A stretch of 64,000 bases of DNA, taken from Alphaproteobacteria bacterium. GTDB taxonomy: Bacteria > Pseudomonadota > Alphaproteobacteria > MPNO01. Numbering within the stretch: the stretch's first letter is position 1; every line of letters begins with the position of its first letter. Under the pieces are notes generated by a model. That model saw only the letters and a program-made list of their open reading frames with translations, was not told where the DNA came from and ran no database searches. Shown here in pieces: positions 5,608 to 25,533 of this stretch. Position numbers and translations under genes: made by a program. The DNA lies in contig OZ219865.1 of NCBI GenBank assembly GCA_964291675.2, positions 576,001-640,000 on the forward strand, read 5' to 3'.

Positions 5608-5616
5608 CCGCCCGGC

Positions 5617-6499: not shown

Positions 6500-7399
6500 C
6501 TAGCCGCCCTCGCCGCGGCCGCGATAGATCGAGAGATAGATCCCGGCCCCGATCAGGCCGACGCCGAGGGCGTGGAACCAGGCGAAGACCTCGCCCAGGA
6601 ACACGATCGCCATGATCACGGTGAAGGCCACGATCAGGTGGACGAAGATCCCCGCCAGGGACGGGCCGAGACGTTGGATCGCGTAGTTCCACAGATAGAC
6701 CGCGAAGACCGAAGAGAACAGCGCGAGCCCGACGACCGCGCCGATCGAGGGCAGCCCCCAGGTCATCGGCCGATCGACGGCCCACTCGATCAGGTAGAGC
6801 GGGATCATCATCAGCGCGCCCAGGAACAGGAGCAGGAAGAGCATCAAGCCCTGGTCCAGCGCGCGCGGGGCGAGCCTGAGATAGACGGCGTAGAGCGCCC
6901 AGCTCACATAGGCGAACAACACCAGGATGTCGCCGGCGTTGAAGTCGAGGGCGAGGATCGCCCGGGGATCGCCGCGCGCAATCAACGCGAACACGCCGAG
7001 CAGGGAGACCAGGACGCCGGCGATCTGGTTGGCCGTCACGCGGTCGCGGAAGATCGCCCAGGCGGCGACGATGATGAGCACCGGCTCGAAGGAGTTCAGC
7101 ACCCCGACATTGATCGCGATCGTGTATTGCAGCGAGAGGAAAAGGACGGCGTTGCCGCCCACGAACAGCAGGAAGGACAGAGCCAGGATGATCCAGAAAT
7201 GCCGCCGGACGAGGTGGATCTGCTGCACCAGCGGGCGCCAGGCGAAGGGCAGCACGACGGCCGCGCCGAGCAGGGTGCGCCAGAACGAGAGCCCCATCGG
7301 CGGGACCTCTTCGCGCAGGCCGCGGACCACCACGGTGCTGGCGGCCCAGCACAGCATGGCGACGGTGACCGCGAGATAGGGCGAGGTCAGGACGCGCAT
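6500..7399 (-). CDS. DMT/EamA-family transporter
   Basis: About 10 hydrophobic segments; GDILVLFAYVSWALY, YLWNYAIQRLGP. Confidence 0.88.
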   Translation of the reverse strand: MRVLTSPYLAVTVAMLCWAASTVVVRGLREEVPPMGLSFWRTLLGAAVVLPFAWRPLVQQIHLVRRHFWIILALSFLLFVGGNAVLFLSLQYTIAINVGVLNSFEPVLIIVAAWAIFRDRVTANQIAGVLVSLLGVFALIARGDPRAILALDFNAGDILVLFAYVSWALYAVYLRLAPRALDQGLMLFLLLFLGALMMIPLYLIEWAVDRPMTWGLPSIGAVVGLALFSSVFAVYLWNYAIQRLGPSLAGIFVHLIVAFTVIMAIVFLGEVFAWFHALGVGLIGAGIYLSIYRGRGEGG

Positions 7400-7583
7400 C
7401 GCGAGCCCGTCGGAGCTGGGTCGAAGCGGGCTCCTGCCCATCGGATGACCTTGTGTGACGAAGTTCCGCGCGCGCGGCGCGCGGGCAGGTTACGGCGCGC
7501 CCCGCCCGGCGGCAAGCGGGGGCTTGCCCGGCCCTCGGCGCGCGCCGAAACTGGCGCGGAGACATCTGGCCGGGAGGCGGGGC

Positions 7584-7976
7584 ATGGCGATCAGACGGGT
7601 TCAATCGACGGAGGTGGCGGAGCCGCCGCCGGAAACATGGTCGAATTGCCTGGTGGCGGGCGACCGGGTCTTCATCGCCGGCATGACCGCGCGCGGCGCC
7701 GATTTCAAGCCGCTCGCCGAGATGGACGAGTACGAACAGGCGAGGACCTGCCTGATCAAGATCCAGCGCCTGATTGAGGCGGCCGGCGGCACCATGGCGG
7801 ACATCGTCAGGGTCAACATCTTCGTCACCGACATCCGCAACCGCGAAGAGGTGTGGCGCGCCCGCCGCGAGTTCTTCTCGGGCGACTTCCCGGTCTCGAC
7901 CCTGGTGGAGGTGAGCGCGCTCGCCGCGCCCGAGATGACCGTCGAGATCGAGGCCGAGGGCGTGCTCGGCGGTTAG
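7584..7976 (+). CDS. RidA/YjgF family protein
   Basis: VFIAGMTA, ARREFFSGDFPVSTLVEVSALA, VEIEA. Confidence 0.9.
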   Translation: MAIRRVQSTEVAEPPPETWSNCLVAGDRVFIAGMTARGADFKPLAEMDEYEQARTCLIKIQRLIEAAGGTMADIVRVNIFVTDIRNREEVWRARREFFSGDFPVSTLVEVSALAAPEMTVEIEAEGVLGG

Positions 7977-9316
7977 GCGGTCGGCCGATCGCGCGAGCGC
8001 CCGGCCTTCAGCGCCGCGAGCTCGTTCTCGGCGGCCCTGGTGTCGTCGAGCCCGGCGCCGCGGTCGACCGGCACGGTTTCCCTGTCGTCGGCCGTCGGCA
8101 GCTTGTCGACCGGGTAGGTCGCGACCCGCTCGTTGCCGCCGGAGACATCGCGCTCCAGCGACAGGTCGCGCTCGTTGGCGGCGCGCGCAGCGACGATCCG
8201 GCCGCCCTCCTTCACCAGGTCGAGCCACCAGCGCTTGACCGGGTTGCGCTTGCCGTAGCCCAGCGCGTCGTCGAGCCAGATCAGGAAGCGGCGCGAGAAC
8301 GGCAGCCTGATCGCCGCCCACATCGCCAGGCGGTGGGCGAGCAGCCCCTCCTTGTTCCACGGGCACATCTTCATGCAGCGCCCGCAGGCCGATCCCTTGA
8401 GATTGGTCACGCGGTACCTGGTGCATTTCTCGACATCGGGCTTCCAGATCTCGTAGCCGTTGTAGAGCACCTTGTCGCCGTAGGGGATCGCCTGGGCCGG
8501 GCATTCGCGGGCGCATTTGCGGCACTTGTCGCAAAAATCCTGGAGCCCGAAATCGATCGGCTTGTCGGGCACCAGCGGCAGGTCGGTGGTGACCACCGCG
8601 GTCTTGTGACGCGGCCCGATGAACGGGTTGAGGACGAGCTCGCCGATCCGGCTCATCTCGCCGAGCCCGGCGAGCAGCATCAGCGGGATCTGCATCACGT
8701 CGCCATGGGCGTTGGAATGGGCTTGCGCCGGATAGCCGAGGCGGCGGATGTAGTCGGCGACGATGGTCGCCGTGGTCGAGCCGTTGAGATAGGCGCGGTA
8801 GCTCTGGGCGCCCGAGATCCAGTCGTCCCCGGACGAGGCCTCGAAGGTGTCCCAGCCCTGGTCGATGACGATGACGACGGCGTACTTGTGCCGTGTCGCG
8901 ATCGGCGTGCCGTCGCTCTCATGCGAGAACCAGGCGTATTCGGGAACCTCGCAGACCCCGACCATGTCGGCGTCGAGGAAATGGCAGAGAGACTTGATGT
9001 GCCGGGTGAGCTCTTCCGGGTCGTCGGGCAGCGGCGCCTTTTCATCCGCCGCATCGCCCTTGTGGGCGGGCACGTGCTTCCAGTGCAGATGGCCGATCGC
9101 GGCGTTCAGCGGGTTCTTGGTGATAAAGCGGCGGATTTCGCTCGCCGGCCTCGGCCCGAGATCGCCGTAGAAGGCGCGGACGAAAAAGCCGGCGCGCTTG
9201 GGCACCTGCCTGACGGCATCGGTGATCAGCGTCGTCGGCCGCTCGACCCGCCTGATCTTCTCCATCGGGTAGCGGCCGAGATGCATCGGCCGTCTCTTGC
9301 GCGAAAGGATCCGCAT
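7973..9316 (-). CDS. rdhA: Reductive dehalogenase (catabolic, cytoplasmic type)
   Basis: HLGRYPMEKI, ADMVGVC, AGLGEMSRIGELVLNPFIGPRHK, FCDKCRKCARECP, C...CGRCMKMCPWN. No Tat signal or rdhB anchor gene seen. Confidence 0.88.
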   Translation of the reverse strand: MRILSRKRRPMHLGRYPMEKIRRVERPTTLITDAVRQVPKRAGFFVRAFYGDLGPRPASEIRRFITKNPLNAAIGHLHWKHVPAHKGDAADEKAPLPDDPEELTRHIKSLCHFLDADMVGVCEVPEYAWFSHESDGTPIATRHKYAVVIVIDQGWDTFEASSGDDWISGAQSYRAYLNGSTTATIVADYIRRLGYPAQAHSNAHGDVMQIPLMLLAGLGEMSRIGELVLNPFIGPRHKTAVVTTDLPLVPDKPIDFGLQDFCDKCRKCARECPAQAIPYGDKVLYNGYEIWKPDVEKCTRYRVTNLKGSACGRCMKMCPWNKEGLLAHRLAMWAAIRLPFSRRFLIWLDDALGYGKRNPVKRWWLDLVKEGGRIVAARAANERDLSLERDVSGGNERVATYPVDKLPTADDRETVPVDRGAGLDDTRAAENELAALKAGRSRDRPTA

Positions 9317-12304: not shown

Positions 12305-12313
12305 TCCTGCAAT

Positions 12314-12356
12314 GCCCGGCGCGCCGCGGGAGCCCCGGTTCCCGCGGCGGCCGGGC
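12314..12356 (+). other. Strong GC stem-loop between the precursor and modifying-enzyme genes
   Basis: GCCCGGC-G-CGCCGCGGGAGCC / GGTTCCCGCGGCG-GCCGGGC inverted repeat. Confidence 0.6.
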
Positions 12357-12368
12357 GGTTTCCCGCCG

Positions 12369-13235
12369 ATGATGCCCGCCTCCTCTCCCTTCGCCGCCGT
12401 ACCGTCCCGAGCCGGCGCGAGCTTCAAGGGCGAGCATGCCGAGGCGGTCTTCGGGCAAGGTCCCGATATCGGCTGGTTCGAAGTCCATCCGGAGAATTAC
12501 ATGGTCGCCGGCGGGCCCCGGCTCGCCATGCTCGAAGCCCTGCGCGAGGCCTGGCCGCTGTCGCTGCACGGCGTCGGCCTGTCGCTCGGCGGCGCCGAGC
12601 GGCTCGACCGCGATCATCTCGCCGCGCTCGGCGCGCTCGCCGACCGGTTCGAGCCGGGCCTGGTCTCCGAGCACATCGCCTGGTCGGCGCATGGCGGCGT
12701 GTGGTTCGCCGACCTGCTGCCGCCCAGCCTCAGCGCGGCGGGGCTCGACCGGCTGTGCGACAATATCGACGAGATGCAGGAGGCGCTCCGCCGGGCGGTT
12801 CTGATCGAGAACCCGGCGAGCTACCTGGTGCTGCCGGACCGGGAGATGGACGAGCTTTCGTTCGTCGTCGAAGCCGCGCACCGCACCGGGTGCGGGTTGC
12901 TCGTCGACCTCAACAACATCCATGTCAGCGCGGTCAATACCGGCCTCGACGCCCAATCCTACGTCGATGCGATCCCGCACGCGCTGGTCGGCGAAATCCA
13001 TCTCGCCGGGTTCAGCCTCGACGATGCCGGCGATGAGCGCCTGCTGATCGACAGCCACGGCGCGCCGGTCGACGGCGCGGTCTGGCGGCTCTACGACCGG
13101 TTGGTCGGGCGCATCGGCGCCAGGCCCACTCTGGTCGAATGGGACAGGGACATCCCGGCCTGGGAGGTGCTGTTCGCCGAGGCGAAGAAGGCCGACCTGG
13201 CGCTTGCGCGCCTCGCCGAACCCGTGCCCGCATGA
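12369..13235 (+). CDS. bufB: DUF692 multinuclear non-heme iron oxidase (MNIO), bufferin maturase
   Basis: WFEVHPENYM, SLHGVGLSLG, SEHIAW, IENPASY, DLNNIHVS, EIHLAG, IDSHG, LVEWD. Confidence 0.92.
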   Translation: MMPASSPFAAVPSRAGASFKGEHAEAVFGQGPDIGWFEVHPENYMVAGGPRLAMLEALREAWPLSLHGVGLSLGGAERLDRDHLAALGALADRFEPGLVSEHIAWSAHGGVWFADLLPPSLSAAGLDRLCDNIDEMQEALRRAVLIENPASYLVLPDREMDELSFVVEAAHRTGCGLLVDLNNIHVSAVNTGLDAQSYVDAIPHALVGEIHLAGFSLDDAGDERLLIDSHGAPVDGAVWRLYDRLVGRIGARPTLVEWDRDIPAWEVLFAEAKKADLALARLAEPVPA

Positions 13236-14011
13236 CGCTCGCTTCGACGCAGGCGCAATTCGCCGCCGCCCTCGGGGACCCGGCGCCGGGTGCGGCGCCG
13301 GCCGGGCTCTCCGAACCCGCCCGGCGGCGCTTCCGGGTCTATCGCAACAACGTGCGCGTCGCCCTGATCGAGGCGCTGGCGGCGGCCTATCCCGCGCTGC
13401 GGCGGATCGTCGGCGAACGGTTCTTCGAGGCGATGGCCCGCGCCTACGCGACCGGCCGCCCGTCGGCGGCCCGCACCCTCAACTTCTACGGCGCGGACTT
13501 CGCCGGGTTCGTGGCCGGTTTCCCGCCGGCGCGCGATCTGCCCTACCTCGCCGATGTCGCGCGGCTGGAGCGTGCGGTGCTGGAGTCGCTCCACGCCGCC
13601 GATGCGCCGGCGCTCGACCCTGCGGCGCTGGCCGCGCTCGGCGCGGGCGTCGCGACGGCGCGGCTCGCGCCCCACCCGGCGGCCCGGCTGGTGCGCTCGC
13701 CCTGGCCGATCGCCCGGATCTGGCAGGCCAATGCCGGCGACTTCGCGCCCGGGGACGAGCTCGTCATCGCCGCCCAAGCCGGCGCCGCGCTGGTCGTCAG
13801 GCCGGCGCTCTCGGTCCGCGTCGAGGCGCTCGACCCGGCCGGCTGCGCCTTCGCCGGGGCCCTGCTGGCGGGCGGCGACCCGATGACGGCGGCGGCGGAC
13901 GCGGCCGCGCTCGACGGCGATTTCGACGTCGTCCCGGCGTTCAGGAACCTGCTCGCTTCCGGCGCCTTCGCCGGGCTCGCGGGCGCAACGGGCGAAGGAG
14001 CAGAGGCATGA
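13232..14011 (+). CDS. bufC: DUF2063 MNIO partner protein
   Basis: RFRVYRNNV...L...YP...VGERFF, PYLADVARLE; ATGA overlap with DUF692. Confidence 0.88.
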   Translation: MTLASTQAQFAAALGDPAPGAAPAGLSEPARRRFRVYRNNVRVALIEALAAAYPALRRIVGERFFEAMARAYATGRPSAARTLNFYGADFAGFVAGFPPARDLPYLADVARLERAVLESLHAADAPALDPAALAALGAGVATARLAPHPAARLVRSPWPIARIWQANAGDFAPGDELVIAAQAGAALVVRPALSVRVEALDPAGCAFAGALLAGGDPMTAAADAAALDGDFDVVPAFRNLLASGAFAGLAGATGEGAEA

Positions 14012-14490
14012 GCAACGGCACACCGACGGCGGCCGGCGCGGCCGGGCTGGTCAGGCAGGCGATCGATATCGGCCACCGGATCGCCGAGCCCGTCGAGCGC
14101 CGGCTCGGGCCGGTCGCGCTGCTGGTCCTCCGGCTGCCGATCGCCATCGTGTTCTGGCGGTCCGGCCGCACCAAGGTCGAGGGGTGGAACATCTTCTCGG
14201 TCAAGGACAGCCAGTACTTCCTGTTCCGCGAGGAGTTCGGCATGCCGATGCCGGAGCTGACGGCGCATGTCACCGCCATCGCCGAGCACGTCCTGCCGAT
14301 CCTGCTGGTGCTCGGCCTGCTGACCCGGCTCAGCGCGCTCGGCATGTTCGTCATGACCATGGTGATCCAGCTCTTCGTCTACCCCGACGCCTGGTTCAGC
14401 GCCCACATGTTCTGGGCGGTCATCCTGTTCGCCGTCATGGCGCTCGGCCCGGGGCGGTACTCGATCGACGGGCTGCTGTTCCGCCGCTAG
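14008..14490 (+). CDS. bufD: DoxX-family membrane protein
   Basis: FWRSGRTK, EHVLPILLVLGLLTRLSA, QLFVYP, GPGRYSID; ATGA overlap. Confidence 0.88.
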   Translation: MSNGTPTAAGAAGLVRQAIDIGHRIAEPVERRLGPVALLVLRLPIAIVFWRSGRTKVEGWNIFSVKDSQYFLFREEFGMPMPELTAHVTAIAEHVLPILLVLGLLTRLSALGMFVMTMVIQLFVYPDAWFSAHMFWAVILFAVMALGPGRYSIDGLLFRR

Positions 14491-15315: not shown

Positions 15316-15379
15316 CCTAACCCCTTGAAAAACTTGGTGCGCGCACCAGGACTCGAACCTGGGACCCACTGATTAAAAG
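15316..15379. repeat. att site: duplicated 3' half of tRNA-Lys plus flank
   Basis: 62/64 identical to 25439-25502; identity ends in the anticodon loop (TTAAAAG). Confidence 0.95.
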
Positions 15380-15474
15380 GCATTCCCGAGCGCCGTTCGC
15401 GACCGTTAGGCGCCGGCATGTCATCGTTAATAGATAAGCTATTTCAATCTCTTAGCAAGTCTCCAAATAGGCCA

Positions 15475-15518
15475 TTGCGTTAATCGCCGTTAGTCCGTAT
15501 CGTGGCGACATGGCGACA
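15475..15518 (+). promoter_or_regulatory. Sigma70-like integrase promoter overlapped by tandem putative arm-type sites
   Basis: TTGCGT-N17-TATCGT followed by TGGCGACA TGGCGACA (15503-15518). Confidence 0.55.
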
Positions 15519-15533
15519 CACTGGAGACTCGAA

Positions 15534-16739
15534 ATGGCGACCGATGGGAAATCAGTGGCACTCACGGAGCGGCGCATCCGGGACGCCAAGGCCACCGGCA
15601 AGACCTACATCATCCGCGACACCCGCGTTGTGGGGCTGGGCGTCCGCGTGTCCAGCGCCGGCACCCGCGCCTATGTGATCGACTACAGGACCGGCGGGCG
15701 CCGCCGCCTCGCCACGCTGGGGCGCTGCTCCGAGATGACGCTGGCGGACGCGCGGAAGCTGGCCGGGCGCGAGCTGGCCGCCGTTCGGAACGAGGGCGCC
15801 GACCCCCTGCGGCGGCGCGCGGACGCCAAGGCGGCGCCGACTGTCGCCGACCTGATCGACCGCTTCCTAGACGACTACGCGCCCCGGCGGATCGACCAAG
15901 GGCGCCTCGCCCCGAAGACGTTGAACGAGTACCGCCGGCAAGCGAACGGCACCCTCCGGCCGGCGCTGGGGCGGTTGAAGGTGGCCGACGTGAAACGCGC
16001 CGATGTCGAGCGGGCCGTTGCCAAGTGCGCCCCTGTCGAGCGCAACCGGCAACTGTCGCTCGCGCGGCGGCTGTTCAATCTCGCCGAGGATTGGGAAATG
16101 CGCGAGCCCGGCACGAACCCGGCGAGGCGAATCGACCGGGCGCGCGAGGAACCCCGCGACCGCGTGTTGTCGCCGGCAGAGATTGGCGCGCTCGGTGCCG
16201 CGCTGGCCGGGCTCGACAATCCCATCGTCGCCGGGGCGATCCGATTCATGACGTTGACGGGCTGGCGCGGCGACGAAGTGCGGCGCCTCCGGTGGGAGAA
16301 CGTCGACACCGAGACGGGCGAGGCGCTGCTGCCGTCGACGAAGACCGGCCGCGACCGCCGCACCATCGGCGCCGCCGCGCTCGGCATCCTCGCCGACATG
16401 CCGCGCATTCACGGCAACCCGTTCGTGTTCGCGGGCGCCAAGGCGGCGGCGGTCTCCTACAAGACCATGCACCAGGCTTTCGGGCTCGCGTGCGAGCGGG
16501 CCGGCATCGAGGGCGCCCAGCCGCACGATCTTCGCCGCACCCTCGCCACGTCCGCCGCCGCGTCCGGCATGACGCTGGTGGGGCTTCGCGACCTGCTCGC
16601 GCACAAGACCACGACGATGGCCGCGAGATATGCGAGGCGGTCCGATAGCGTCCTGCGGGCCGCGCAAGACGACATGGCCGACCGGATGGCCGGCATGCTG
16701 GACGGGGCGGACGCCGAAATCGTGGCGATTCGCAAATAG
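15534..16739 (+). CDS. int: Tyrosine integrase with N-terminal arm-DNA-binding domain
   Basis: GLGVRVS...YVIDYR...TLGR arm domain; catalytic TGWR, TKTG, HDLRR, LAH, ARY. Confidence 0.95.
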   Translation: MATDGKSVALTERRIRDAKATGKTYIIRDTRVVGLGVRVSSAGTRAYVIDYRTGGRRRLATLGRCSEMTLADARKLAGRELAAVRNEGADPLRRRADAKAAPTVADLIDRFLDDYAPRRIDQGRLAPKTLNEYRRQANGTLRPALGRLKVADVKRADVERAVAKCAPVERNRQLSLARRLFNLAEDWEMREPGTNPARRIDRAREEPRDRVLSPAEIGALGAALAGLDNPIVAGAIRFMTLTGWRGDEVRRLRWENVDTETGEALLPSTKTGRDRRTIGAAALGILADMPRIHGNPFVFAGAKAAAVSYKTMHQAFGLACERAGIEGAQPHDLRRTLATSAAASGMTLVGLRDLLAHKTTTMAARYARRSDSVLRAAQDDMADRMAGMLDGADAEIVAIRK

Positions 16740-16872
16740 GCGTTGCGCAACCACAATTCTGCGTATTGTTTAGGTGTCGCCCGTTAATTCGAGCGGGCGG
16801 CATGGTCACTCACCAACCGGGGGAACAGCCATGTCACGGAAGGAACCGACAACGACATAGGGGCTCCCCCCC

Positions 16873-17079
16873 ATGACCAGATTCGATCCCGAAGTCTTCT
16901 ATCGTTCGACCGATCCCGCGCTGGCCGTGATCGCGACCAGCGGCACGTTGCGTGTCTGGAGATGCCAGAAACGCGGGCCGCGCTATCACCGGCTGGGTGG
17001 GCGAGTCGTCTATTCGGGCAAGGACCTGAACGACTACATCGACTCGTGCGCCGTCGATCCTGCTGACGCCGCCGCCTGA
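16873..17079 (+). CDS. AlpA/excisionase-like winged-HTH protein
   Basis: TLRVWRCQKRGPRYHRLGGRVVYSGKDLNDY; lies directly after the integrase. Confidence 0.8.
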   Translation: MTRFDPEVFYRSTDPALAVIATSGTLRVWRCQKRGPRYHRLGGRVVYSGKDLNDYIDSCAVDPADAAA

Positions 17080-17084
17080 ACGAG

Positions 17085-17116
17085 AAAACCCCCGGGCCAC
17101 GACTCCCGGGGGCTTT
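17085..17116 (+). terminator. Stem-loop after the AlpA-like gene (possible terminator/attenuator)
   Basis: AAAACCCCCGGG-ccacgact-CCCGGGGGCTTT. Confidence 0.5.
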
Positions 17117-17142
17117 CCAGTGTTTGACCACGACGGCACATC

Positions 17143-17763
17143 ATGGACGGCGGGAACGTAGCCGACCGCGCGAGCCGGCGCAAGCCACCGCCGCTGATCG
17201 TGGCCGTTGCGCAGGCGCCGCGATACCGCGGCATCAAGCGGCTGGTGCTGTTGCAGCTTGCCCTTTGGGGCAACCGGGACGGCACCCGGATTTTTCCCTC
17301 CCTTGGCCACGTCGCCGAGCTCGCCGGCATCGACGTGCGCAGCGTGCGCCGCCACGTCCGGGCGTTCGAGACGGACGGCGTGTTGACCGCCGTGGCGCGC
17401 TCGCGGGGCGGGCGGGCGGCGAACGGGCGGGCCAGGACCACCGAATACAGGCTCAATCTGGCGGCGCTCAACCCGGACTCGGGAGTCCGGGTTAACCCGG
17501 ACTCTGGTGTCCCTCAACCCGGACTCTGGTGTCCCTCAACCCGGACTCACGAGTCCGACAACCCTGTAAGACCCTCCAAGACCCTTGCGCCGCCCGCCTC
17601 GCCTGCCGAGGGGCAGGCGGGCGGCGCTTCCGAAACGCGGGAAGAAATCGAGGCCGAGATAGAGGCGCTGCAAAACGACCTGCGGAGCTACATGGACCCG
17701 GACGCGGCGCGTGCCGTCCGCAGGCGGCTGGCCGAGTACAAGCGAAAGCTCACGACGGCATAG
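17143..17763 (+). CDS. HTH replication initiator-like protein containing the origin
   Basis: KRLVLLQLA...IFPSLGHVAELAGIDVRSVRRHV (HTH_36-like) followed by an iteron-encoded linker. Confidence 0.7.
   Translation: MDGGNVADRASRRKPPPLIVAVAQAPRYRGIKRLVLLQLALWGNRDGTRIFPSLGHVAELAGIDVRSVRRHVRAFETDGVLTAVARSRGGRAANGRARTTEYRLNLAALNPDSGVRVNPDSGVPQPGLWCPSTRTHESDNPVRPSKTLAPPASPAEGQAGGASETREEIEAEIEALQNDLRSYMDPDAARAVRRRLAEYKRKLTTA
17470..17557. repeat. Iteron array (putative replication origin)
   Basis: AACCCGGACTC at 17470, 17494, 17516 and 17538, inverted at 17483, partial inverted at 17551; 22-bp unit AACCCGGACTCTGGTGTCCCTC repeated. Confidence 0.85.
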
Positions 17764-17772
17764 GAGGCCGAA

Positions 17773-17985
17773 ATGCACTACCCGACCACGCTCCCCGATA
17801 CCCCGGAACGCTGCGACGCGGCGATAGGCCGATGGGAACGGTTCGCGGACAAGCTCAAGCCGACCGACGAGCGCGAGATTGCAATCGTCGGCGGCTACAT
17901 CGCGACGCTGCTTCAGCACAAGCGCGACCTGAAGGCGGTCGCCGAGGCGGAGAACGTTGAACCCCTGCGGAGGACGGCGGCATGA
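17773..17985 (+). CDS. Hypothetical protein (satellite)
   Basis: RBS AGGAGG, 70 aa, ATGA-coupled to the next ORF. Confidence 0.7.
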   Translation: MHYPTTLPDTPERCDAAIGRWERFADKLKPTDEREIAIVGGYIATLLQHKRDLKAVAEAENVEPLRRTAA

Positions 17986-18185
17986 CAGACCAGAAGCTCG
18001 AAATCGACCTTCCCGGAACGATGCATCCGGGCGATGAGGTGTACGGCGTAATCATCGGCATGGACGGCGGGGCGCGCGTGTGCTGGACCAATGCGTTCCT
18101 CGCCCTGCCACGGGAAGAACGTCAGCAAGTGGGCGTCCTGCTGCAAGAGGCGGTCAAGATCGTGCCGCCGAGGGAGCGTATCTGA
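17982..18185 (+). CDS. Hypothetical protein (satellite)
   Basis: Translationally coupled on both sides. Confidence 0.65.
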   Translation: MTDQKLEIDLPGTMHPGDEVYGVIIGMDGGARVCWTNAFLALPREERQQVGVLLQEAVKIVPPRERI

Positions 18186-18481
18186 TGCCCTGCGAACGCT
18201 GTATCTGGTGGCGCACCGAGGACGATGCGCCGACCACCGATGAAGGCGTGCCGCACTACGGCACATGCCACGCCGCACCCCCTCGCCCCGAGATACGCCT
18301 GACCGACGACCCGAACGAGCTTCAAGGCAAGTTCGTCCAAACGGTCTGGCCGTGGACCAAGCCGCACGATCATTGCGGCGGGTTCGTTGATAGCGCCTGG
18401 GTGGACCCCTCAACCGGCACGATCAAGAGGCCGAACGTGCTGCCGCCTATGGACGATGACGGCACCGAGACGCTGCAATGA
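18185..18481 (+). CDS. Small Cys-rich (putative Zn-binding) phage protein
   Basis: CERCIWW...GTCHAAPP...WPWT...DHCGGF; TGATG coupling. Confidence 0.7.
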   Translation: MPCERCIWWRTEDDAPTTDEGVPHYGTCHAAPPRPEIRLTDDPNELQGKFVQTVWPWTKPHDHCGGFVDSAWVDPSTGTIKRPNVLPPMDDDGTETLQ

Positions 18482-19245
18482 GCGACGGCGATGCCACCCC
18501 CCTGTCAAACTGGCTGTGTGCCGAGGCCGACCGGCTGAGGGACCGCGCGCGGGAACGGCGAAAGGACATCATCGCGGACGGGCGGGCGCTGCTGGCCGCG
18601 AAGGACGAATGCAGGCACGGCGAGTGGCTTCCGTTCCTCTCGCGCGCCGGCATCGGCGAGCGCATGGCGCAAGAGCTCATGAAGATCGTCCGGGCTATCG
18701 ACGCGGGCGAAATCGAATCCGCAACGGTTGCGGATTTGGGCATCCGCGCTGCGCTCCAACAGCTACGCGGGCCGAAGGTGGTCCGCATTGCATCGCCGGC
18801 AGAATTGCACACGTTGCAGGACACGGCGAACGCCACCGGCGATCCGATAGTCGCGGAGCTATGGGGCAAACGGGTTTCGCTCAAACCCATCTCGCCGGAG
18901 GCGTCCCGCAATCGGGGCAAGATGTTCATCGGCTGCGCATGGCGGCTTGGGAGAGCGATAGAACGAAACCGCCCCGACCTGGCCGAGCTCGGCAAGCGGC
19001 TGCGGTCATCGTTCGAGGTGATCCACAAGGCGAAAATCAGGACGCTTGAAGAGGGCGCGGAAAAGGCCGCCGCCTTCTATCTCCGCTATCCAGCCGGGCC
19101 GCCCGACGTAGACGCCGAGCATGAGGCCGGGGCGGTTTTGGAGGCGCATGACGTGCCGGAATGGACCACCGCCTTGCTTCTAAGCTGCTGGACGCCGGGC
19201 CACCTTCCCGAGGCGTTCTGGAGCGACTTCAACGAGAGGGGCTGA
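18478..19245 (+). CDS. DUF3102-like domain protein
   Basis: GRALLAAKDECRHGEWLPFL...GERMAQELMKI resembles DUF3102. Confidence 0.65.
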   Translation: MSDGDATPLSNWLCAEADRLRDRARERRKDIIADGRALLAAKDECRHGEWLPFLSRAGIGERMAQELMKIVRAIDAGEIESATVADLGIRAALQQLRGPKVVRIASPAELHTLQDTANATGDPIVAELWGKRVSLKPISPEASRNRGKMFIGCAWRLGRAIERNRPDLAELGKRLRSSFEVIHKAKIRTLEEGAEKAAAFYLRYPAGPPDVDAEHEAGAVLEAHDVPEWTTALLLSCWTPGHLPEAFWSDFNERG

Positions 19246-19330
19246 GGGCGCCGGCAGGATTGACACGCCGCGCGGGGCTCGGATGGTGGAGGCGCGAGCT
19301 ATTTGGAACCAATCGAAAGGAGATCGATCC

Positions 19331-19486
19331 ATGGATTATCGCCGAGAATTGCAGAAAATAATCCAATCTGAAGACGAATTGCGAGAGGACTACGTGATTG
19401 CCGTCGCTGCGCTGGCCTTGTTGGAAAAGATGGACGATTTGCACTCAGGTCTTTCGGACATCGACCTGACCATGACGATGAAGTAA
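19331..19486 (+). CDS. Small hypothetical protein, moron-like
   Basis: RBS AAGGAG, upstream TTGACA at 19260, visibly more AT-rich, 51 aa. Confidence 0.55.
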   Translation: MDYRRELQKIIQSEDELREDYVIAVAALALLEKMDDLHSGLSDIDLTMTMK

Positions 19487-19530
19487 TTCCCCTGCACCGC
19501 TCGGGCGAGCATCGAGCATTTCCGAACGAC

Positions 19531-19567
19531 GAGGGCCGGCAGCGGGGGTGACCTACTGCCGGCCCTC
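19531..19567. other. 12-bp perfect inverted repeat in the gap before the head module
   Basis: GAGGGCCGGCAG...CTGCCGGCCCTC. Confidence 0.55.
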
Positions 19568-19780
19568 TCCCGAACGAGGAAACCACCGGTTGACGAGACC
19601 GGCGTGCGAACCCTGCCACGGACACACGCCCCTCGCAACAGGATATTGCGCAAAAGGTACTGTGACGGGCGGAATCGGGCGCGGTTGGGGGGCATCATCG
19701 CAATCTTTTCCGATTTCCGGGGCGCCTGGCGCAACAAACGGTTTGACCGCTAGGCCATTCCGCGCCACCTTGTTCTCACG

Positions 19781-21016
19781 ATGTTCGAGCGAATCCGGCA
19801 TGCCTTCCGGGGCGAATCGAGGTCATCCGAGCTTGACGTGGGGGCGCTCTATCAAGCCGCGTTCCAGTTCGAGGGCGGGAGCTATAGCTGGGCGCGCTCC
19901 CCGGCCCTTCTGGTCAGCTCCCTGTCCCTCCCGGACGCCGCCGGCGACAGTACGGGCGTACTGCTGACCGAAAGCCGGCGCCTGGGGCGCACGTCGCCGC
20001 TGTTGATCGCCTATAGGGGCGTCATGGAGACCGGCATCCTGACGGGCGAGCCGGAGGCGCCGGAGTTCCCCGACACCGTGCCGGAGAACGTCGCCGCCGC
20101 CGTGGCCGACCTGTGGCTCGACACCCACGACTGCGACCGCGAGCGCGACCTACTCGATAGGGTCATCGTCGACGGCGAGTTCCTGATTCTCGAGACCGGG
20201 GAAGTCGTGCCGCCGGACGGGTTCGAGCCGATCATGGCCGGGGCGAAATGGAATCCCACCGTGACAGGCTACCGAGTCGGCAAGTCGAGCCGCGCCCGCA
20301 TGGTCGGCGTCCGGCATGTCGGCGACCGCCCGATGGGCGCCGCCCGGGCTCTGCCGTGGCTGGCGCCCGCGCTCCCGCCCGCCGCCGGGCTGTTGAACGC
20401 GCGGACGGGCGCCGGGCATGCGCTCGGCATCATGGCGAAGATCGCCGCCGTGATCGCCAACGCCTCCCCGGATCGCCAGACCGCAGCCGCCGGGCATCGG
20501 TCGGGCGTAGTCGGCGCCGACCGGAACGAGCTGCCGCGCCAACCGATAACGACCGTGGGCGTGGGCGCCGTGCCGTTCCTGAAGATGGGCGAGGCGGTCG
20601 ACCGCGTTGAGGCCGGGCCGGATGAGACCGCCCGTAAGTACGAGGGGCAGCTCGAACGAGATGTCGCGTCGGCGCTCCACCTTCCCCTGTCCGAGCTTCT
20701 GAGCGACTACAGCACCGGCTCATTCAGCAACCTGCGCATGGCATGGGCGGACGGCGTGGCGGAGAAGCGGCGCCGCCGCGCATGGTGGCACCGCCACTAT
20801 CGGCGCCCGGCCTATCTGGACGTGCTGTCCACCGCCTTCGCGGCGGGGCGCCTCCCCCGCATGAGCATGGCCGTCATGGCCGCGCTCAAGCGCCCGTCAT
20901 GGCCGGGGCCGACCCCCATCGCACCCGAACCCCTCAAGCAAGCGCTCACCCTGTCGGAGCTTGTCGAGGCGGGAATCATCGACCCCGCCGCAGCGGCGGC
21001 ACAATTGGAGCAATGA
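19781..21016 (+). CDS. Portal protein, lambda-like family
   Basis: VIVDGEFL; RDVASALHLPLSELLSDYSTGSFSNLRMA and W..P..IAPEPLKQ resemble the lambda-portal motifs IAAGLG.PYE.L..D.S..NYSS.R and IDPLKE. Confidence 0.75.
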   Translation: MFERIRHAFRGESRSSELDVGALYQAAFQFEGGSYSWARSPALLVSSLSLPDAAGDSTGVLLTESRRLGRTSPLLIAYRGVMETGILTGEPEAPEFPDTVPENVAAAVADLWLDTHDCDRERDLLDRVIVDGEFLILETGEVVPPDGFEPIMAGAKWNPTVTGYRVGKSSRARMVGVRHVGDRPMGAARALPWLAPALPPAAGLLNARTGAGHALGIMAKIAAVIANASPDRQTAAAGHRSGVVGADRNELPRQPITTVGVGAVPFLKMGEAVDRVEAGPDETARKYEGQLERDVASALHLPLSELLSDYSTGSFSNLRMAWADGVAEKRRRRAWWHRHYRRPAYLDVLSTAFAAGRLPRMSMAVMAALKRPSWPGPTPIAPEPLKQALTLSELVEAGIIDPAAAAAQLEQ

Positions 21017-21020
21017 GACG

Positions 21021-22259
21021 ATGAAGAAATCGGTACAGCTTGCCGTCCGGGCATCCGAAATCCGGTCGGAGATCAACGGGCTCGATCCGGGCGAGGCGAC
21101 CCTGGAGAAGCGCCGCGAGCTTCTGGAACAGCTCAACACCGTCGAGTCGGAGTACCGCGCCGCGCTCACCACCGAGGCCGAGACGGACGCGGCGGCGCCG
21201 GACGCGAACGGGCTGACCGCCGAGGAACGCGAGTTCCGCGCGCTCGAAAGCCGGGCCGAGCTTCGCACCGCGTTCCGCGCGGTCATGTCGGACGCCCCGC
21301 TGGCGGGCGCCGAGAAGGAGTTGCAGGAGCATCGCGGGCTCTCCGGTCACGCGCTCCCCTGGGACCTGATCGCGCCGCGCGCCCGCACCGAGGAACGGGT
21401 GGACGCCGTGTCGGCGGCGCCGTCCGACTCCCATCTGCAGCAGCACCCCATCCTCGCCCGCGTGTTCGCCCGGTCGGCGACCGCGACGCTGGGGGTGGCG
21501 ATGCCGATGGTGCCGGTCGGGGAACAGAACTACCCCGTCATCACGACCACCGATAAGGCGGTCATCCTCGCCAAGGACGCGGCCGAGGGCGACACGGCGG
21601 ACGCCGGTATCACGGCGCACACCATCGCCCCGACCCGGTTGCAGCGCTCCTACCTGTTCCGCCGCGAGGACCAAGCGGTTCTGAGCGGGCTCGAGGAGGC
21701 GCTGAGGGCCGACCTGTCGGGCGCCGTGTCCGACCTGCTGGACGCTCAGGTTCTCGCGGGCGACGGCAGCGCGCCCAATTTCGGCGGCTTCCTCGCCACC
21801 GCCGCGAACGGCGGGCTCACGGATCGCAGCGACACGCCCGCCCGCGTGACGTTCGCGCTGGCGGCCGGCGAGGCCGCGCGGGGCATCGACGGGCTCTATG
21901 CCGGCGGGCTCGGCGAGTGCGCCATCGTGATCGGCGACGACACCGCGCGCGATCTGGCGAGCAAGTTCACCACCAACGGCGAGGAGTCGGCGCTCGCGTA
22001 CATGAGCCGCACGACCGCCCGCGCGATGGCGAGTGCGAACGTCCCCGCCGTCGCGTCCAATTTCCAAGAGGGCATTCTTGCCCGCATGGGCGCCGCCGGC
22101 ATGAATTCGGTCTGCCCGGTCTGGGATGGCATGTTCGCGATCCGCGACGAAATCAGCGGGCGCAAGTCGGGGCAAATCAGCATCACCATCGGCATGCTCT
22201 GCGGCTTCGACATCCTGCGTGCGGGCGGCTACGACCGGCTGAAATTCCGAGTCGCCTGA
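21021..22259 (+). CDS. Major capsid protein, HK97 fold with N-terminal coiled-coil (delta) region
   Basis: Helical N-terminus of about 100 aa; LRADLSGAVSDLLDAQVLAGDG..P.FGG motif; 412 aa; between portal and protease. Confidence 0.8.
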   Translation: MKKSVQLAVRASEIRSEINGLDPGEATLEKRRELLEQLNTVESEYRAALTTEAETDAAAPDANGLTAEEREFRALESRAELRTAFRAVMSDAPLAGAEKELQEHRGLSGHALPWDLIAPRARTEERVDAVSAAPSDSHLQQHPILARVFARSATATLGVAMPMVPVGEQNYPVITTTDKAVILAKDAAEGDTADAGITAHTIAPTRLQRSYLFRREDQAVLSGLEEALRADLSGAVSDLLDAQVLAGDGSAPNFGGFLATAANGGLTDRSDTPARVTFALAAGEAARGIDGLYAGGLGECAIVIGDDTARDLASKFTTNGEESALAYMSRTTARAMASANVPAVASNFQEGILARMGAAGMNSVCPVWDGMFAIRDEISGRKSGQISITIGMLCGFDILRAGGYDRLKFRVA

Positions 22260-22753
22260 TGGCTGTCGAGTACCGATTCGCCGCGCTGGAGTTCCGCAGC
22301 GACGGCGCCGTGATCGAGGGCGTCGCCATGCGTTACGGCGACGTGGCGCGCATCTATGGCGCCTTCGACGAATCGGTTGAGGCCGGCGCGTTCCGGTTCG
22401 ATGACGTGATCCTGAACCGGATGCACCAGCGCGCCGACCCCATCGCCCGGACGGGCGGCGGCGGGCTCGAATTGTCGGACTCGTCCGTGCGCCTCGCCGT
22501 GCGGGCGGACGTGCCGGAGTATCGGGCGGACGTTCGCGACATGGTGAAGCGCGGCATCCTCCGGGGGTTCTCTGTCGAGATGGACGTGACCGCCGAGGAA
22601 TGGCCGTCGCCGTCGCGCCGGATCATCCGCGCCGCAACGCTGTCGGGCATCGGACTCGTCGACCGCCCGGCCTATGGAGACGCGACCGCCGAGATTGCCA
22701 AGAGGGCGAAGGAATGCCGGACGGCAACGCGGTTCCTGCCCCTAGCGGTCTGA
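22259..22753 (+). CDS. HK97-family prohead protease
   Basis: IEGVAMRY, E.VEAGAF, LNRMH, RGFSVEM, IGLVDRPAY; TGATG coupling. Confidence 0.88.
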   Translation: MAVEYRFAALEFRSDGAVIEGVAMRYGDVARIYGAFDESVEAGAFRFDDVILNRMHQRADPIARTGGGGLELSDSSVRLAVRADVPEYRADVRDMVKRGILRGFSVEMDVTAEEWPSPSRRIIRAATLSGIGLVDRPAYGDATAEIAKRAKECRTATRFLPLAV

Positions 22754-24576
22754 GGCGCTGGGCCGAGCGCAACGTCGTCGTCGGCGACGGGCCGCTTGCC
22801 GGCTCGCCCTACCGGGCAGGCGGCGGCGGACAGGGGCGCCCGCCAGTGCCGGCATGGGGCGAGGTGATCGACGCGTGCGACGACCCAGATCTAGAGCAAG
22901 TCACGATCCGGGGCAGCGTACAGAGCGGCAAGACCGCCGGGCTGATCGTGGCCGCGCTGGGCCATATGGCCGCCGGGCGCTCCGTGCTGATCTTCGAGCC
23001 CGACGACAGGCTCAAGCGCACCCTCGCCGCGCGCATTGTCGCGTGGGGGCGCCTCTGTAGGGACGAGGCTATCCGGGAGGCGTACGAACCCGCCCGGCCC
23101 CCTCACGCGCGCTCAGTGGCCGGCGGAGGGCGCCTGGAGGTGGTTTCCGCGCGAGAGGGCGGCGCCGGTCTCATGCGCACCGCCGAGATAGTCATCGTCG
23201 ACGAGCTGCGGGTGTTCCACCGCGACATGCTCGGCGAGCTGGTCGACCGCATGGCCGCCTATGGCGGCGCCGGCAGGCTTATCACCGCATCGTCGGCGGG
23301 GTACGAAGACGAGTGCCGAACGACCGTCGAGCTGGACAAGTCCGACGCCCGGCGATGGTTCCTGCGATGCCCCTCCTGCGGGCAGCAGAACATCGCTCAG
23401 TGGTCCAACGTGATCTACAAGGGCCGGGCGTCCCCGATCTACTGCATGCCCTGCTGCGGCGCCGCGCTCTCGTCAATCGAGTTCCGCCACGCAGTAGTGG
23501 CCGGCGAGTGGCGCCCGACGAAGGAGGAGTCCGTGCCTGGCACCCGGGGCTATCATCTGGACGCCTTCCTGAGCCCGTTCGAGTCCCTGCCGACCATCGT
23601 GCGCCAGTGGAAGCGCGCGGACGCCCACCGCAAGCAGACCGGCTCCATGGCCGACGTGATCAGCTTCCAATGCGGAAGGCTCGCGCTCCCGTACAAGCCC
23701 GAGGCCGCGCAAGGGGTAACGCCCGAGGCGCTGGCGACCGCGTGCCGCGAGGACTACGACCCCGACATCGTGCCGGCGGGCGCGTCCCTGCTGATAGGCG
23801 CCGTCGACGTGCAGGACAACCGCCTGGAGGCCGAGATAACCGCCTGGGGCGTTGTCGAGGTCGCCGCGCCGCAGGACGCGAGCGAAGTGAAGGGCTGGGG
23901 CTCGCACGAATTTCGCGGCCTCGCCCATGACGGGCGCTGGTATCGCCTGCGGCGATGGGCGATGGAGTACCGCCGCCTGTACGGCGACCCCGGCAACGCC
24001 GACGTGTGGGAGGCCCTGGCCGAGTTCATGGAGACGCCGCGCCCGCACGCGACCGGCGCCATGCTCCGCCCGGTCACGGTCGGCGTCGATATCGGCGGAC
24101 ACTACGGGCAGCAGGTTGCCGATTTCGTCCGCGTCCGTGGCGAGGGCTATCAGTGCCTGAAGGGCATTCCGGCCGGGCGGATCGGCGCGATGCTCGCGCG
24201 GCGATCGGTCACGGCGGACAGTCTCGACACCTACGGGCCGGCGGGGCTGATGCTGGTAGGGCCGGACTCCGGCAAGGCGACCGCCTTCAGCCTCATGCGC
24301 CAGAGCATCGCGGGCGCCGAGCCGCGCCCGATGGTCTGGCCGATGGAGGAGTCGCGCTACGGCCCTCAAGAGTTCGAGTCCATCGTGTCCGAGACCCTGG
24401 TGCGCGCGCTCGACAAGAGGACGGGGAGGACCACGCTGATGTGGAGGAAGATCGCCCGCGAGAACGAGGGACTGGACCTGATGGTGTACAGCTTGGCCAT
24501 AGCCTCCCACCTGGGGGTCGGGCTCATGCTGCACGAAGCCGCGACCATCGCCGCCGCCGAGAGGATCGCCGCATGA
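22714..24576 (+). CDS. terL: Terminase large subunit, lambda gpA family
   Basis: Walker A SVQSGKT, Walker B IVIVDE, WFLRCPSCG, nuclease GAVDVQDNRLE, RENEGLDLMVY. Confidence 0.9.
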   Translation: MPDGNAVPAPSGLRRWAERNVVVGDGPLAGSPYRAGGGGQGRPPVPAWGEVIDACDDPDLEQVTIRGSVQSGKTAGLIVAALGHMAAGRSVLIFEPDDRLKRTLAARIVAWGRLCRDEAIREAYEPARPPHARSVAGGGRLEVVSAREGGAGLMRTAEIVIVDELRVFHRDMLGELVDRMAAYGGAGRLITASSAGYEDECRTTVELDKSDARRWFLRCPSCGQQNIAQWSNVIYKGRASPIYCMPCCGAALSSIEFRHAVVAGEWRPTKEESVPGTRGYHLDAFLSPFESLPTIVRQWKRADAHRKQTGSMADVISFQCGRLALPYKPEAAQGVTPEALATACREDYDPDIVPAGASLLIGAVDVQDNRLEAEITAWGVVEVAAPQDASEVKGWGSHEFRGLAHDGRWYRLRRWAMEYRRLYGDPGNADVWEALAEFMETPRPHATGAMLRPVTVGVDIGGHYGQQVADFVRVRGEGYQCLKGIPAGRIGAMLARRSVTADSLDTYGPAGLMLVGPDSGKATAFSLMRQSIAGAEPRPMVWPMEESRYGPQEFESIVSETLVRALDKRTGRTTLMWRKIARENEGLDLMVYSLAIASHLGVGLMLHEAATIAAAERIAA

Positions 24577-25142
24577 ACGTCTATCGCCACATGATCGACT
24601 ACGGCGAGTCCCTCCGATGGGAGCCGCCCGCCGGGACCGGCAAGTTCTTCGTGTGGCGCAAGATCGGCGAGGTCGGCGCCGCCATGCGCTGGCGCCGTGT
24701 CGGCGGCCATGACGTGGCCGGCGGCACCGAGATCACCGTGCCGGAAGGGACGTTCGCGGTTCCCGCCGCGCAGGTCGCCCTCGCCTGGGGCGACGTGCTG
24801 GCGCTGTTCGATGGGTTCGACCCGGAAGTGATCCAGGTCACGGCGCACGGCGACGGCGAGGCGCTGATACGGCGCGACACCTACACCCTCCCGCCGCCGA
24901 CCAGTATCGACGCGGACACCATCGCCGCCCAAGAGCGCCGGCTACTGAAAGCCCTGCTCGACCAACGCGCCGCCGTGGCGGACGTGTCGGGCATGGTGAA
25001 GGTCACGGACCCGAGCGGCACCGCCGTCGAATACCAGAACCTTGCCGCGCTCGACCGGCGAGTCGCCGAGGTCCGGGCGCGCATCGCGTGGTTCGAGCAG
25101 GCGGCGGCGGGGAACGTGCTTCCGCGCGCCGAATTCTGGTAG
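24573..25142 (+). CDS. Protein with C-terminal gpW-like head-completion region and unknown N-terminal domain
   Basis: ATGA-coupled to terL; helix-hairpin-helix KALLDQRAAV...VKVTDPSGTAVEYQNLAALDRRVAEVRARI resembles lambda gpW. Confidence 0.6.
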   Translation: MNVYRHMIDYGESLRWEPPAGTGKFFVWRKIGEVGAAMRWRRVGGHDVAGGTEITVPEGTFAVPAAQVALAWGDVLALFDGFDPEVIQVTAHGDGEALIRRDTYTLPPPTSIDADTIAAQERRLLKALLDQRAAVADVSGMVKVTDPSGTAVEYQNLAALDRRVAEVRARIAWFEQAAAGNVLPRAEFW

Positions 25143-25169
25143 GGCGCCGCGTGCTGCTACACTGGCCGC

Positions 25170-25391
25170 ATGTCGATGTTGAAGGAATTCGGCGACATGC
25201 TCGACGGTAAGGGGCCTGGCCCTGTGTCGACTTGGGCTGCTCGGCTGTTTCTGCTGTGGCTGACAGTCATGCTCTTCTGCATCGGCGTCCTCATGATTGA
25301 CCTGGTGAAAGACGTGTGGCTGGGCGGCGACGAGGACGTGCTGCGGCAAATCCTCGACATCCTCGACGAGCGCCTTCCGCCGCCCCGCTGA
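25170..25391 (+). CDS. Small single-pass membrane protein (satellite cargo)
   Basis: One TM segment LFLLWLTVMLFCIGVLMIDLV; last ORF before att. Confidence 0.55.
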   Translation: MSMLKEFGDMLDGKGPGPVSTWAARLFLLWLTVMLFCIGVLMIDLVKDVWLGGDEDVLRQILDILDERLPPPR

Positions 25392-25438
25392 GGCGACATA
25401 TTGGCAACATGCCGCCGCCGCCGTGTCGCCTGATTTCG

Positions 25439-25502
25439 CCTAACCCCTTGAAAAGATTGGTGCGCGCACCAGGACTCGAACCTGGGACCCACTGATTAAA
25501 AG
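25439..25502. repeat. att site overlapping the 3' half of the intact tRNA-Lys
   Basis: Direct repeat of 15316-15379. Confidence 0.95.
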
Positions 25503-25533
25503 TCAGTTGCTCTACCACCTGAGCTATGCGCGC
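25458..25533 (-). tRNA. tRNA-Lys(UUU)
   Basis: GCGCGCA TA GCTC AGGTGGTA GAGC A ACTGA CTTTTAA TCAGT GGGTC CCAGG TTCGAGT CCTGG TGCGCGC A CCA folds into a full cloverleaf. Confidence 0.97.

Follow-up and report, generated by a model that had tools for sequence, protein, structure and literature searches.

Satellites that form their own capsids are known from Gammaproteobacteria, Betaproteobacteria and Firmicutes, and only with packaging genes of the HK97/HNH type. Phage-inducible chromosomal islands of the capsid-forming kind (cf-PICIs), such as EcCIEDL933 and KpCIDSM30104, are 10-18 kb in length and contain HNH, small terminase (TerS) and head-tail connector genes within an HK97-derived packaging operon. 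Completion of cf-PICI heads by helper tails has been shown experimentally, and the faster divergence of their adaptors has been described as adaptation to different tails. Here, we describe an island of about 10 kb, inserted at a tRNA-Lys gene of an alphaproteobacterium, that encodes a capsid together with a lambda-type packaging motor. It lies in a window of 64,000 nucleotides (contig OZ219865.1, positions 576,001 to 640,000), whose own numbering is used below. With a probability of about 0.72, we read this element as an intact member of an undescribed family of ~10-kb integrative satellites of Alphaproteobacteria that have their own head and packaging machine and no tail.

The Streptomyces satellites MulchRoom and MiniFlayer also have their own capsid and packaging genes and use helper tails, according to their paper, which reports no homology to known satellites. 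By this description, with which alone the comparison was made, they differ from our element in their hosts (Actinomycetota), in the virulence of their helpers, in their direct terminal repeats and in the lack of an obvious replicase. A tail-less satellite of the kind described here was not found in the literature searched, and the main text of the SatelliteFinder paper does not mention Alphaproteobacteria.

The island occupies positions 15316-25505, at the 3' end of tRNA-Lys, and its ends are defined by the following features:

15316-15382, no strand: attL, the left copy of a 67-nt direct repeat, which duplicates the 3' part of tRNA-Lys; it can be aligned with the empty site in a sister species, G018
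25439-25505, no strand: attR, the right 67-nt copy, overlapping the 3' part of tRNA-Lys
25458-25533, minus strand: intact tRNA-Lys(ttt), the integration target (Rfam, 73.8 bits)

The two repeat copies are 96% identical and spaced 10,123 bp apart, with a perfect core at 15335-15380 and 25458-25503, as read from both printed copies. The tRNA-Lys gene is the sole tRNA gene of the window. Ordinary chromosomal genes flank the island: those to its left encode an MbnB-type enzyme, DoxX and a hydrolase, those to its right an OsmC-hydrolase fusion and enoyl-CoA hydratase. In G018, which belongs to the same genus, about 417 bp separate the hydrolase of the left flank (96% identical) from the OsmC-hydrolase of the right flank (93%), and the gap between them holds one tRNA-Lys and one att core, with sides that align with the attL and attR flanks of the window. 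Since the site is empty in this sister species, the island is a clean insertion with defined ends: a true, discrete insertion at tRNA-Lys that carries its own integrase.

The late block of the island consists of five genes:

19781-21016, plus strand: portal protein of the lambda (gpB) family, 411 aa (PF05136, 48.8 bits against a cut-off of 32.9; phrog_21, 5.7e-17)
21021-22259, plus strand: major capsid protein (MCP), HK97 type, 412 aa (PF05065), with a helical, delta-like N-terminal region
22259-22753, plus strand: prohead serine protease (S78), 164 aa (PF04586, 2.3e-13, 51 bits; phrog_80, 2.3e-19)
22714-24576, plus strand: large terminase (TerL), lambda gpA type, 620 aa, with ATPase and nuclease domains (PF05876, 1.7e-16; PF20454, 1.5e-45; phrog_15, 1.8e-67)
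24573-25142, plus strand: predicted head-to-tail adaptor, 189 aa, with an Ig-like domain and a helix-hairpin-helix (AlphaFold 2 model and Foldseek; no Pfam or PHROG match)

The start codon (ATG) of the protease gene overlaps the stop codon of MCP, the TerL ATG at 22714 is 40 nt within the protease gene and has a purine-rich, ribosome-binding-site-like AAGAGGGCGAAGGA upstream of it, and the adaptor gene starts by an ATGA overlap at 24573. All plausible genes of the island are on the plus strand (14 open reading frames, ORFs), and their frames are open. The window MCP itself scores below the Pfam cut-off (PF05065, E 0.0098); 15 of 26 family members match PF05065 at E<=0.001. When a profile of 84 diverse MCP relatives was used, the best match in the PDB was the capsid protein of roseophage vB_DshS-R4C (R4C; 8gta_A, E 0.003) and the next two matches were also major capsid proteins; a narrower, 26-member profile gave no PDB sequence match.

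The motor resembles that of lambda in that TerL contains both gpA domains, the portal belongs to the gpB family and the adaptor gene comes after TerL, as W follows A in the lambda gene order. It differs in that no Nu1-like TerS was found, the 189-aa adaptor has an extra Ig-like domain, the protease is of the S78 and not the lambda C type, and the cos site is a candidate only. A preliminary description of this DNA had listed att repeats at tRNA-Lys, an integrase, uninterrupted and coupled ORFs on one strand, the portal, MCP, protease and TerL genes and a lambda-type motor, all of which were borne out by these analyses.

The same description had called the last gene of the block gpW-like. Its product does have gpW-like traits, i.e., a C-terminal helix-hairpin-helix and a gene position after TerL, but no Pfam match to gpW was detected at E<=0.01, and the two-domain architecture is of the R4C type instead. 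The AlphaFold model (30 homologues, pLDDT 80.1) has a beta-sandwich at residues 1-105, a helix at 114-137, a hairpin at 143-153 and a second helix at 157-178. Its best Foldseek match is chain M of 8GTD, the R4C portal-adaptor complex (E 9.7e-5, 194 columns, 17% identity); the remaining matches cover the Ig-like domain alone, and the adaptor profile had no sequence match in the PDB. The R4C paper divides its adaptor into an Ig-like domain for attachment (1-106), a tube domain made of two helices, an adaptor loop for docking of the stopper, and a hook at the C-terminus. Based on the model, which shares this plan, we read the 189-aa protein as a predicted head-to-tail adaptor and functional counterpart of lambda gpW; membership in the gpW family is unsupported by any test.

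A search with the adaptor detected 148 homologues, and the 120 listed range from 103 to 331 aa and carry no Pfam family. Of the head proteins, the adaptor diverges fastest: its listed homologues are 43-61% identical, compared with 60-90% for MCP and 60-79% for the portal (n=120, with PF05136 in 120 of 120). R4C resembles the family further in its MCP, the best PDB match of the profile, and in its gene numbers, which run adaptor, portal and capsid protein. However, the sequences are only marginally similar (adaptor, 17% identity; MCP profile, E 0.003), R4C has the stopper, terminator and tail of a complete tailed phage, and the satellite family has integration and replication genes inserted between adaptor and portal.

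Among the 14 island ORFs, neither Pfam nor PHROGs detected tail, lysis, holin, HNH (E<=0.01), small-terminase or connector/stopper families, in agreement with the preliminary report of no tail or lysis gene. The same scans did find HNH in two sister islands (L016 and L017, see below). Six of the 14 ORFs lack a Pfam match. No TerS family, including Nu1, was matched by any island ORF, and apart from a small helix-turn-helix (HTH) protein, no small ORF is conserved family-wide. Because no TerS, stopper or connector was recognised, these functions would have to be supplied by uncharacterised genes or by a helper.

We compared the island with cf-PICIs using the 11 core components of SatelliteFinder and the criteria of He et al. 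2025. It has an integrase, its own MCP, protease and portal, and a head-tail adaptor, with no tail or holin gene in 10,123 bp; it lacks HNH, an HK97-type TerL and, in the window copy, a primase-replicase, in whose place there is an O-like initiator. The two kinds of element are alike in being integrative, with an integrase, an AlpA-type regulator (a candidate in the island), a replication module, a capsid, protease, portal, adaptor and TerL of their own, no genes for tail or lysis, and head genes far from those of any phage. They differ in that the island combines a gpA TerL with a gpB-family portal and not HK97/HNH-type proteins, has no detected HNH, TerS or connector, has a single R4C-type adaptor with an Ig-like domain and (in the window copy) an O-like initiator and not a primase, resides in Alphaproteobacteria, and is known from its genes alone. 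By analogy, the element would work like a cf-PICI in function, yet it lies outside the HK97/HNH definition of that group.

The island has relatives. A search with MCP gave 330 matches, and the 119 listed homologues are nearly all from metagenome assemblies; in one source, they are named phage major capsid proteins of Alphaproteobacteria or Rhodospirillales metagenome-assembled genomes (MAGs). A wider search detected 448 clusters at 50% identity that match at E<=1e-30. Using MCP, we identified relatives at five genome loci (four in Alphaproteobacteria MAGs and one in a Micropepsaceae) and at one JGI metagenome locus, and the order portal-MCP-protease-TerL-adaptor is present in all six. In the five genome loci, a tRNA gene comes after the late block (Thr, Met, Lys, Lys and Glu). 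Four of the five relatives tested have att repeats, which give sizes of 10.2, 9.9, 12.4 and 10.25 kb, the 12.4-kb copy with an IS1595 transposase. Thus, the att-bounded elements of 9-12 kb with the same gene order that the preliminary description had proposed to look for in genomes do exist, at 9.9-12.4 kb.

An integrase was identified in five of the six relatives; the gene is fragmented in L003 and interrupted by IS3 in L007, and in L005 a candidate ORF was detected by tblastn only. Conservation across the whole family is limited to the integrase, the HTH protein and the five late genes, and the early regions are mosaic: the O-like initiator is shared by the window and L006 (family match), L004 encodes a primase-helicase of 550 aa (Toprim/AAA_25), and L013 a helicase of the AAA_25 type. 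The G+C content of each island is within 2.5 points of that of its own flanks. Outside the att sites, 31 of 47 flank ORFs of the relatives have a Pfam match and 16 have none; the matched families are housekeeping (MnmA, arginase, Tgt, QueA, PurA and ABC transporters), genes of insertion sequences (IS) and one integrase, and there are no tail or lysis families among these 31. In 15 pairwise comparisons of portal, MCP and TerL (dS 0.29-1.24), the ratio of nonsynonymous to synonymous substitutions (dN/dS) was 0.13-0.41, indicating that the head genes are under purifying selection.

Some relatives look damaged. In L003, the integrase (4651-5904) and the primase-helicase (6521-8412) are in pieces, which may reflect frameshifts or assembly errors; L005:16623-17570 encodes an IS1595 transposase, and L007:3451-7763 contains IS3-family transposases beside the truncated integrase.

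Among 50,697 phage records, no tblastn match was found for MCP, portal or adaptor, and TerL matched 226 with at most 27.5% identity. Two 11-kb 'Ralstonia phage' records were considered as similar satellites and dropped, as they matched in TerL and in neither MCP nor adaptor; judged by ORF sizes alone, they resemble fragments of the head module in ordinary prophage predictions. A close MCP homologue has a patchy distribution: in the genus it was detected in 1 of 12 genomes, in the order in 1 of 78 (that of the window itself) and in the class in 1 of 401 sampled. The longest contig is 7.4-13 kb for 38 of 119 MCP clusters; these short contigs were not counted as evidence of free elements because assemblies break at the att repeat anyway. 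Taken together, a repeated, size-constrained and selected design, present at different tRNAs with different integrases, points to a family of mobile elements and not to a deletion remnant.

Upstream and downstream of the late block, the island contains the following additional features:

15510-16739, plus strand: P4-type tyrosine integrase, 409 aa (PF00589, 1.3e-18; PF13356, Arm-DNA-bind_3, 1.3e-13; phrog_1, 3e-57)
16873-17079, plus strand: small HTH protein, AlpA/Xis-like, 68 aa (HTH_17, E 1.6e-4, 22.3 bits, below the Pfam cut-off of 27)
17143-17763, plus strand: lambda-O-like replication initiator, 206 aa (phrog_270, 1.1e-9; phrog_1032, 3.9e-9; phrog_391, 'replication initiation O-like', 4.5e-9)
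17467-17564, no strand: candidate iterons/origin, a 22-nt unit repeated in tandem 4.4 times within the initiator gene (score of 115-118 in Tandem Repeats Finder)
17773-18185, plus strand: two small ORFs, 70 and 67 aa, with no family match and not conserved in relatives
18185-18481, plus strand: small Cys-rich protein, 98 aa, with a CxxC..WWR..C..PP..WP..CG pattern and no Pfam match
18478-19245, plus strand: DUF3102-like accessory protein, 255 aa (PF11300, E 8.7e-4; phrog_15609, phrog_1748), absent from relatives
19283-19486, plus strand: small ORF with a helical product of 67 aa, immediately upstream of the conserved intergenic motif, with no family match
25170-25391, plus strand: small ORF, 73 aa, with one hydrophobic stretch, no family match and not found in relatives

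The integrase is 46-49% identical to those of L004-L006 and 48% identical to that of a different island at the same site in G014, another member of the genus. The 68-aa HTH protein is 44-46% identical over its full length in L004, L005 and L006, and has a two-piece match, probably a frameshift, in L003. The origin of lambda is located within gene O, and the candidate iterons within the initiator gene are laid out alike. The preliminary description had recognised no primase or helicase; this holds for the window copy, but the O-like initiator with its iterons had been overlooked, and some relatives do carry a primase-helicase.

One non-coding block is conserved in the family:

19654-19730, plus strand: conserved cis element, candidate cos site and/or late promoter, starting ~125 nt upstream of the portal start

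It consists of AAGGTACTGTG, a G-run, ATCGCA and then CGATTT / CGATTTTCGG. The GGTACTGT core is present at the same relative position in six of seven family members and is unique in the window, where 0.07 chance matches are expected; no other conserved non-coding block of the family was seen. An Rfam scan of the island returned nothing but the tRNA, a sigma-70 scan gave no promoter-like site, and RNAalifold of the conserved upstream region gave -4 kcal/mol and no convincing structure. A sigma-54-like GG-N10-GC reading was dropped since the spacing fails in L005 and L006. By its position and conservation, the element is a candidate cos site, late promoter or both.

From these genes a life cycle may be proposed, in which we infer particle formation, a helper phage, a cos site and excision by analogy. 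A helper phage or stress would switch on the AlpA-like regulator, and the island would be excised by its integrase and replicate from the candidate iterons. MCP, protease and portal would then form a small procapsid, with the helical N-terminal region of MCP (3-105) as a possible scaffold. The gpA-type TerL would cut at the cos site, for which the motif upstream of the portal is the candidate, and package one 10-kb genome; the adaptor would cap the portal, and the filled head would be completed by the stopper and tail of a siphovirus-type helper. The family probably spreads by borrowing the tails of other phages.

Several observations weigh against an intact satellite. The fragmented genes of L003 and the IS in L007 and L005 mean that some copies are decaying. 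A helper was not identified in the host genome, where the sole phage-like region found looks short-tailed, and five common head or tail families, including PF04860 (HK97-family portal) and PF13550 (tail), are absent from that genome. Nor were TerS, stopper or connector genes recognised in the island. The structural evidence is incomplete: superposition of the adaptor on 8gtd_M is modest (TM 0.28, root-mean-square deviation 14 A over 194 columns), an all-against-all structure search with the adaptor gave only tied scores (Z ~7), with the phage Chi neck protein among the ties, and the AlphaFold 2 model of MCP has a pLDDT of 43.5 overall (70-88 for the helices at 3-105) and was too poor to use. 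A poor global superposition is expected, as the adaptor has two domains on a flexible linker; the MCP model was kept out of fold searches because of its pLDDT. The virome search proposed earlier also came back empty, with no relative among IMG/VR virus contigs in three scans (MCP, MCP alignment and TerL alignment, with 2-6 peptide patterns each).

Excised forms belong to the same set of observations. An attP or attB joint is absent from the public assemblies that hold the island (three contig sets and one raw-read set), a result that is uninformative either way because contigs drop rare forms. Contigs of these assemblies break at the att cores (15350 and 25477), and the listed joints, with sides of 20-37 letters, fit neither attP nor attB. 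In one public assembly the depth of the island (~9.5-11) equals that of its flanks (~8-10). A run search gave two sequencing runs that contain the stretch, with no RNA data set among those listed. Of the junctions that the preliminary description had suggested looking for, the empty site was seen in the sister species G018 and the circle was not seen.

An alternative that we consider unlikely, though it fares best among those weighed, is that the island encodes self-sufficient, tail-less, DNA-filled particles, i.e., a minimal virus with an unknown entry route or an agent like the gene transfer agents (GTAs), which would need no helper tail. It would account for the missing helper in the host genome, for an adaptor encoded without a stopper and for several small ORFs without an assigned function. 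However, these small ORFs are not conserved across the family, which rules them out as a common means of entry. The adaptor, which is conserved, is of the type whose loop docks a siphovirus stopper in R4C, according to that paper, and it diverges fastest, as described for the cf-PICI adaptors that fit different tails. What the island shares with RcGTA is a place in an alphaproteobacterial chromosome and head genes of phage origin, with a protease of the S78 family and an MCP of the HK97 type. GTAs are vertically inherited, encode tails and lack integrase and att sites, whereas our element is patchy, mobile and carries both, in a genome without PF04860 and PF13550.

It is more improbable still that the island is an ordinary member of a published cf-PICI family and nothing new. 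The logic is the same: integrase, AlpA-like regulator and replication module come before the head set (capsid, protease, portal, adaptor and TerL), genes for tails or lysis are missing, and the size is ~10 kb. Yet the published definition includes HNH, TerS, a connector and an HK97-derived operon, and none of the first three was found here, while TerL is of the gpA type and the portal of the lambda family. In the literature searched, papers that join 'capsid-forming' with 'Alphaproteobacteria' describe no such element.

Finally, it is very improbable, and largely refuted, that the island is what a deletion left of a tailed prophage, lambda-like or R4C-like, now in decay and stripped of its genes for tail and lysis: a large deletion would be expected to leave head genes without tails, some relatives have IS insertions or frameshifted genes and no excised form was seen in public assemblies, but six independent relatives have the same late-block content at 9.9-12.4 kb and at tRNA-Thr, -Met, -Lys and -Glu, their head genes are under purifying selection, all frames of the window copy are open and coupled, no similar MCP, portal or adaptor is found in the 50,697 phage records, and integration and replication genes lie between adaptor and portal in every copy, a stable design and not a random end-point of deletion.

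The interpretation given in the preliminary description, that this is a distinct satellite lineage and not a decayed prophage, is thus supported, as the closest homologues do not lie in full-length tailed prophages (six of six loci are compact, with no tail or lysis family among the Pfam-matched flank ORFs), the element does not fit the published cf-PICI definition, and syntenic relatives exist.

More tentatively, and with somewhat less than even confidence, we suggest that the satellite family might be a fourth independent origin of capsid-forming satellites, derived from a lambda/R4C-like and not an HK97/HNH head module, and with fewer parts than any described cf-PICI (no HNH, no TerS of its own and a single neck protein). 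If the latter is true, the stopper and tail, and possibly TerS, would be taken from the helper. Capsid-forming satellites matter in that their tail-less heads, by accepting foreign tails, can carry genes from one species to another, and a conserved, widespread family of uncultured Alphaproteobacteria with a different motor would show that this strategy arose again from another phage lineage. The family would also provide new marker genes for satellite-finding tools, and a minimal test system of five late genes for capsid sizing, cos-site filling and helper-tail matching.

Other capsid-encoding islands were found in the same genus. In G014, another capsid island, of 13.2 kb, sits at the same tRNA-Lys/OsmC-hydrolase site, bounded by att repeats at L017 1177-1239 and 14408-14470. 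It carries, in order, an integrase (48% identical to that of the window), an Xis/AlpA-like gene (37%), an O-like initiator, HNH, an HK97-type TerL (phrog_9), MCP (31%), protease (33%) and a weak portal match. An IS21 insertion follows TerL and apparently interrupts it. The occupation of one tRNA-Lys site by either island type, with related integrases (48%) and with MCP and protease ~31-33% identical, suggests that satellites may swap whole packaging motors about a common core of capsid and protease; the two different capsid islands at one att site in sister species represent a natural experiment on satellite module exchange.

Our element's own genome holds a second island (L001:11400-18514, G000:C1 ~679,400-686,500) with an integrase, a 204-aa ORF, MCP (~29-30%), an S78 protease (~44-45%) and several unknown ORFs; TerL, portal and an att repeat were not recognised in it. 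The whole of contig C237 of G018 (L016:1-10996) encodes a TerL (phrog_9), HNH, a 275-aa ORF, MCP, a protease and ORFs of 1025 and 490 aa, and is possibly an HNH-type capsid island or a phage fragment. In G015 (L015:9271-18301), the orthologue of the left-flank hydrolase is split by an ~8.3-kb insertion with a 534-aa MCP, an S78 protease and a head-tail adaptor (phrog_442), in which no integrase was seen. The distant MCP-protease pairs of these three loci are ~29-36% (MCP) and 31-45% (protease) identical to those of the window. Judged by gene content, the genus holds several kinds of capsid-encoding islands, and the lambda-type and HNH/HK97-type motors appear to be alternatives around a related capsid-protease core.

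The prophage-like region of the host genome (L014:1610-12934, G000:C2 ~3,004,600-3,015,900) encodes a TerL (phrog_2), an 886-aa portal, a major head protein, a tail protein (phrog_6013) and an amidase. This apparently short-tailed region is doubtful as a helper.

Two early-region products of the island have counterparts elsewhere. The nearest protein-atlas clusters of the DUF3102-like protein are DUF3102 clusters, mostly viral. The small Cys-rich protein recurs weakly in the early region of three of seven elements, in varying places: the window, L006:8337-8618 (E 0.005) and L013:7918-8379 (E 0.033). Directly to the left of the island, window positions 12312-14490 encode an MbnB/TglH/ChrH-type enzyme (PF05114, 5e-91) for modification of ribosomally synthesized and post-translationally modified peptides, together with a DoxX-domain protein.

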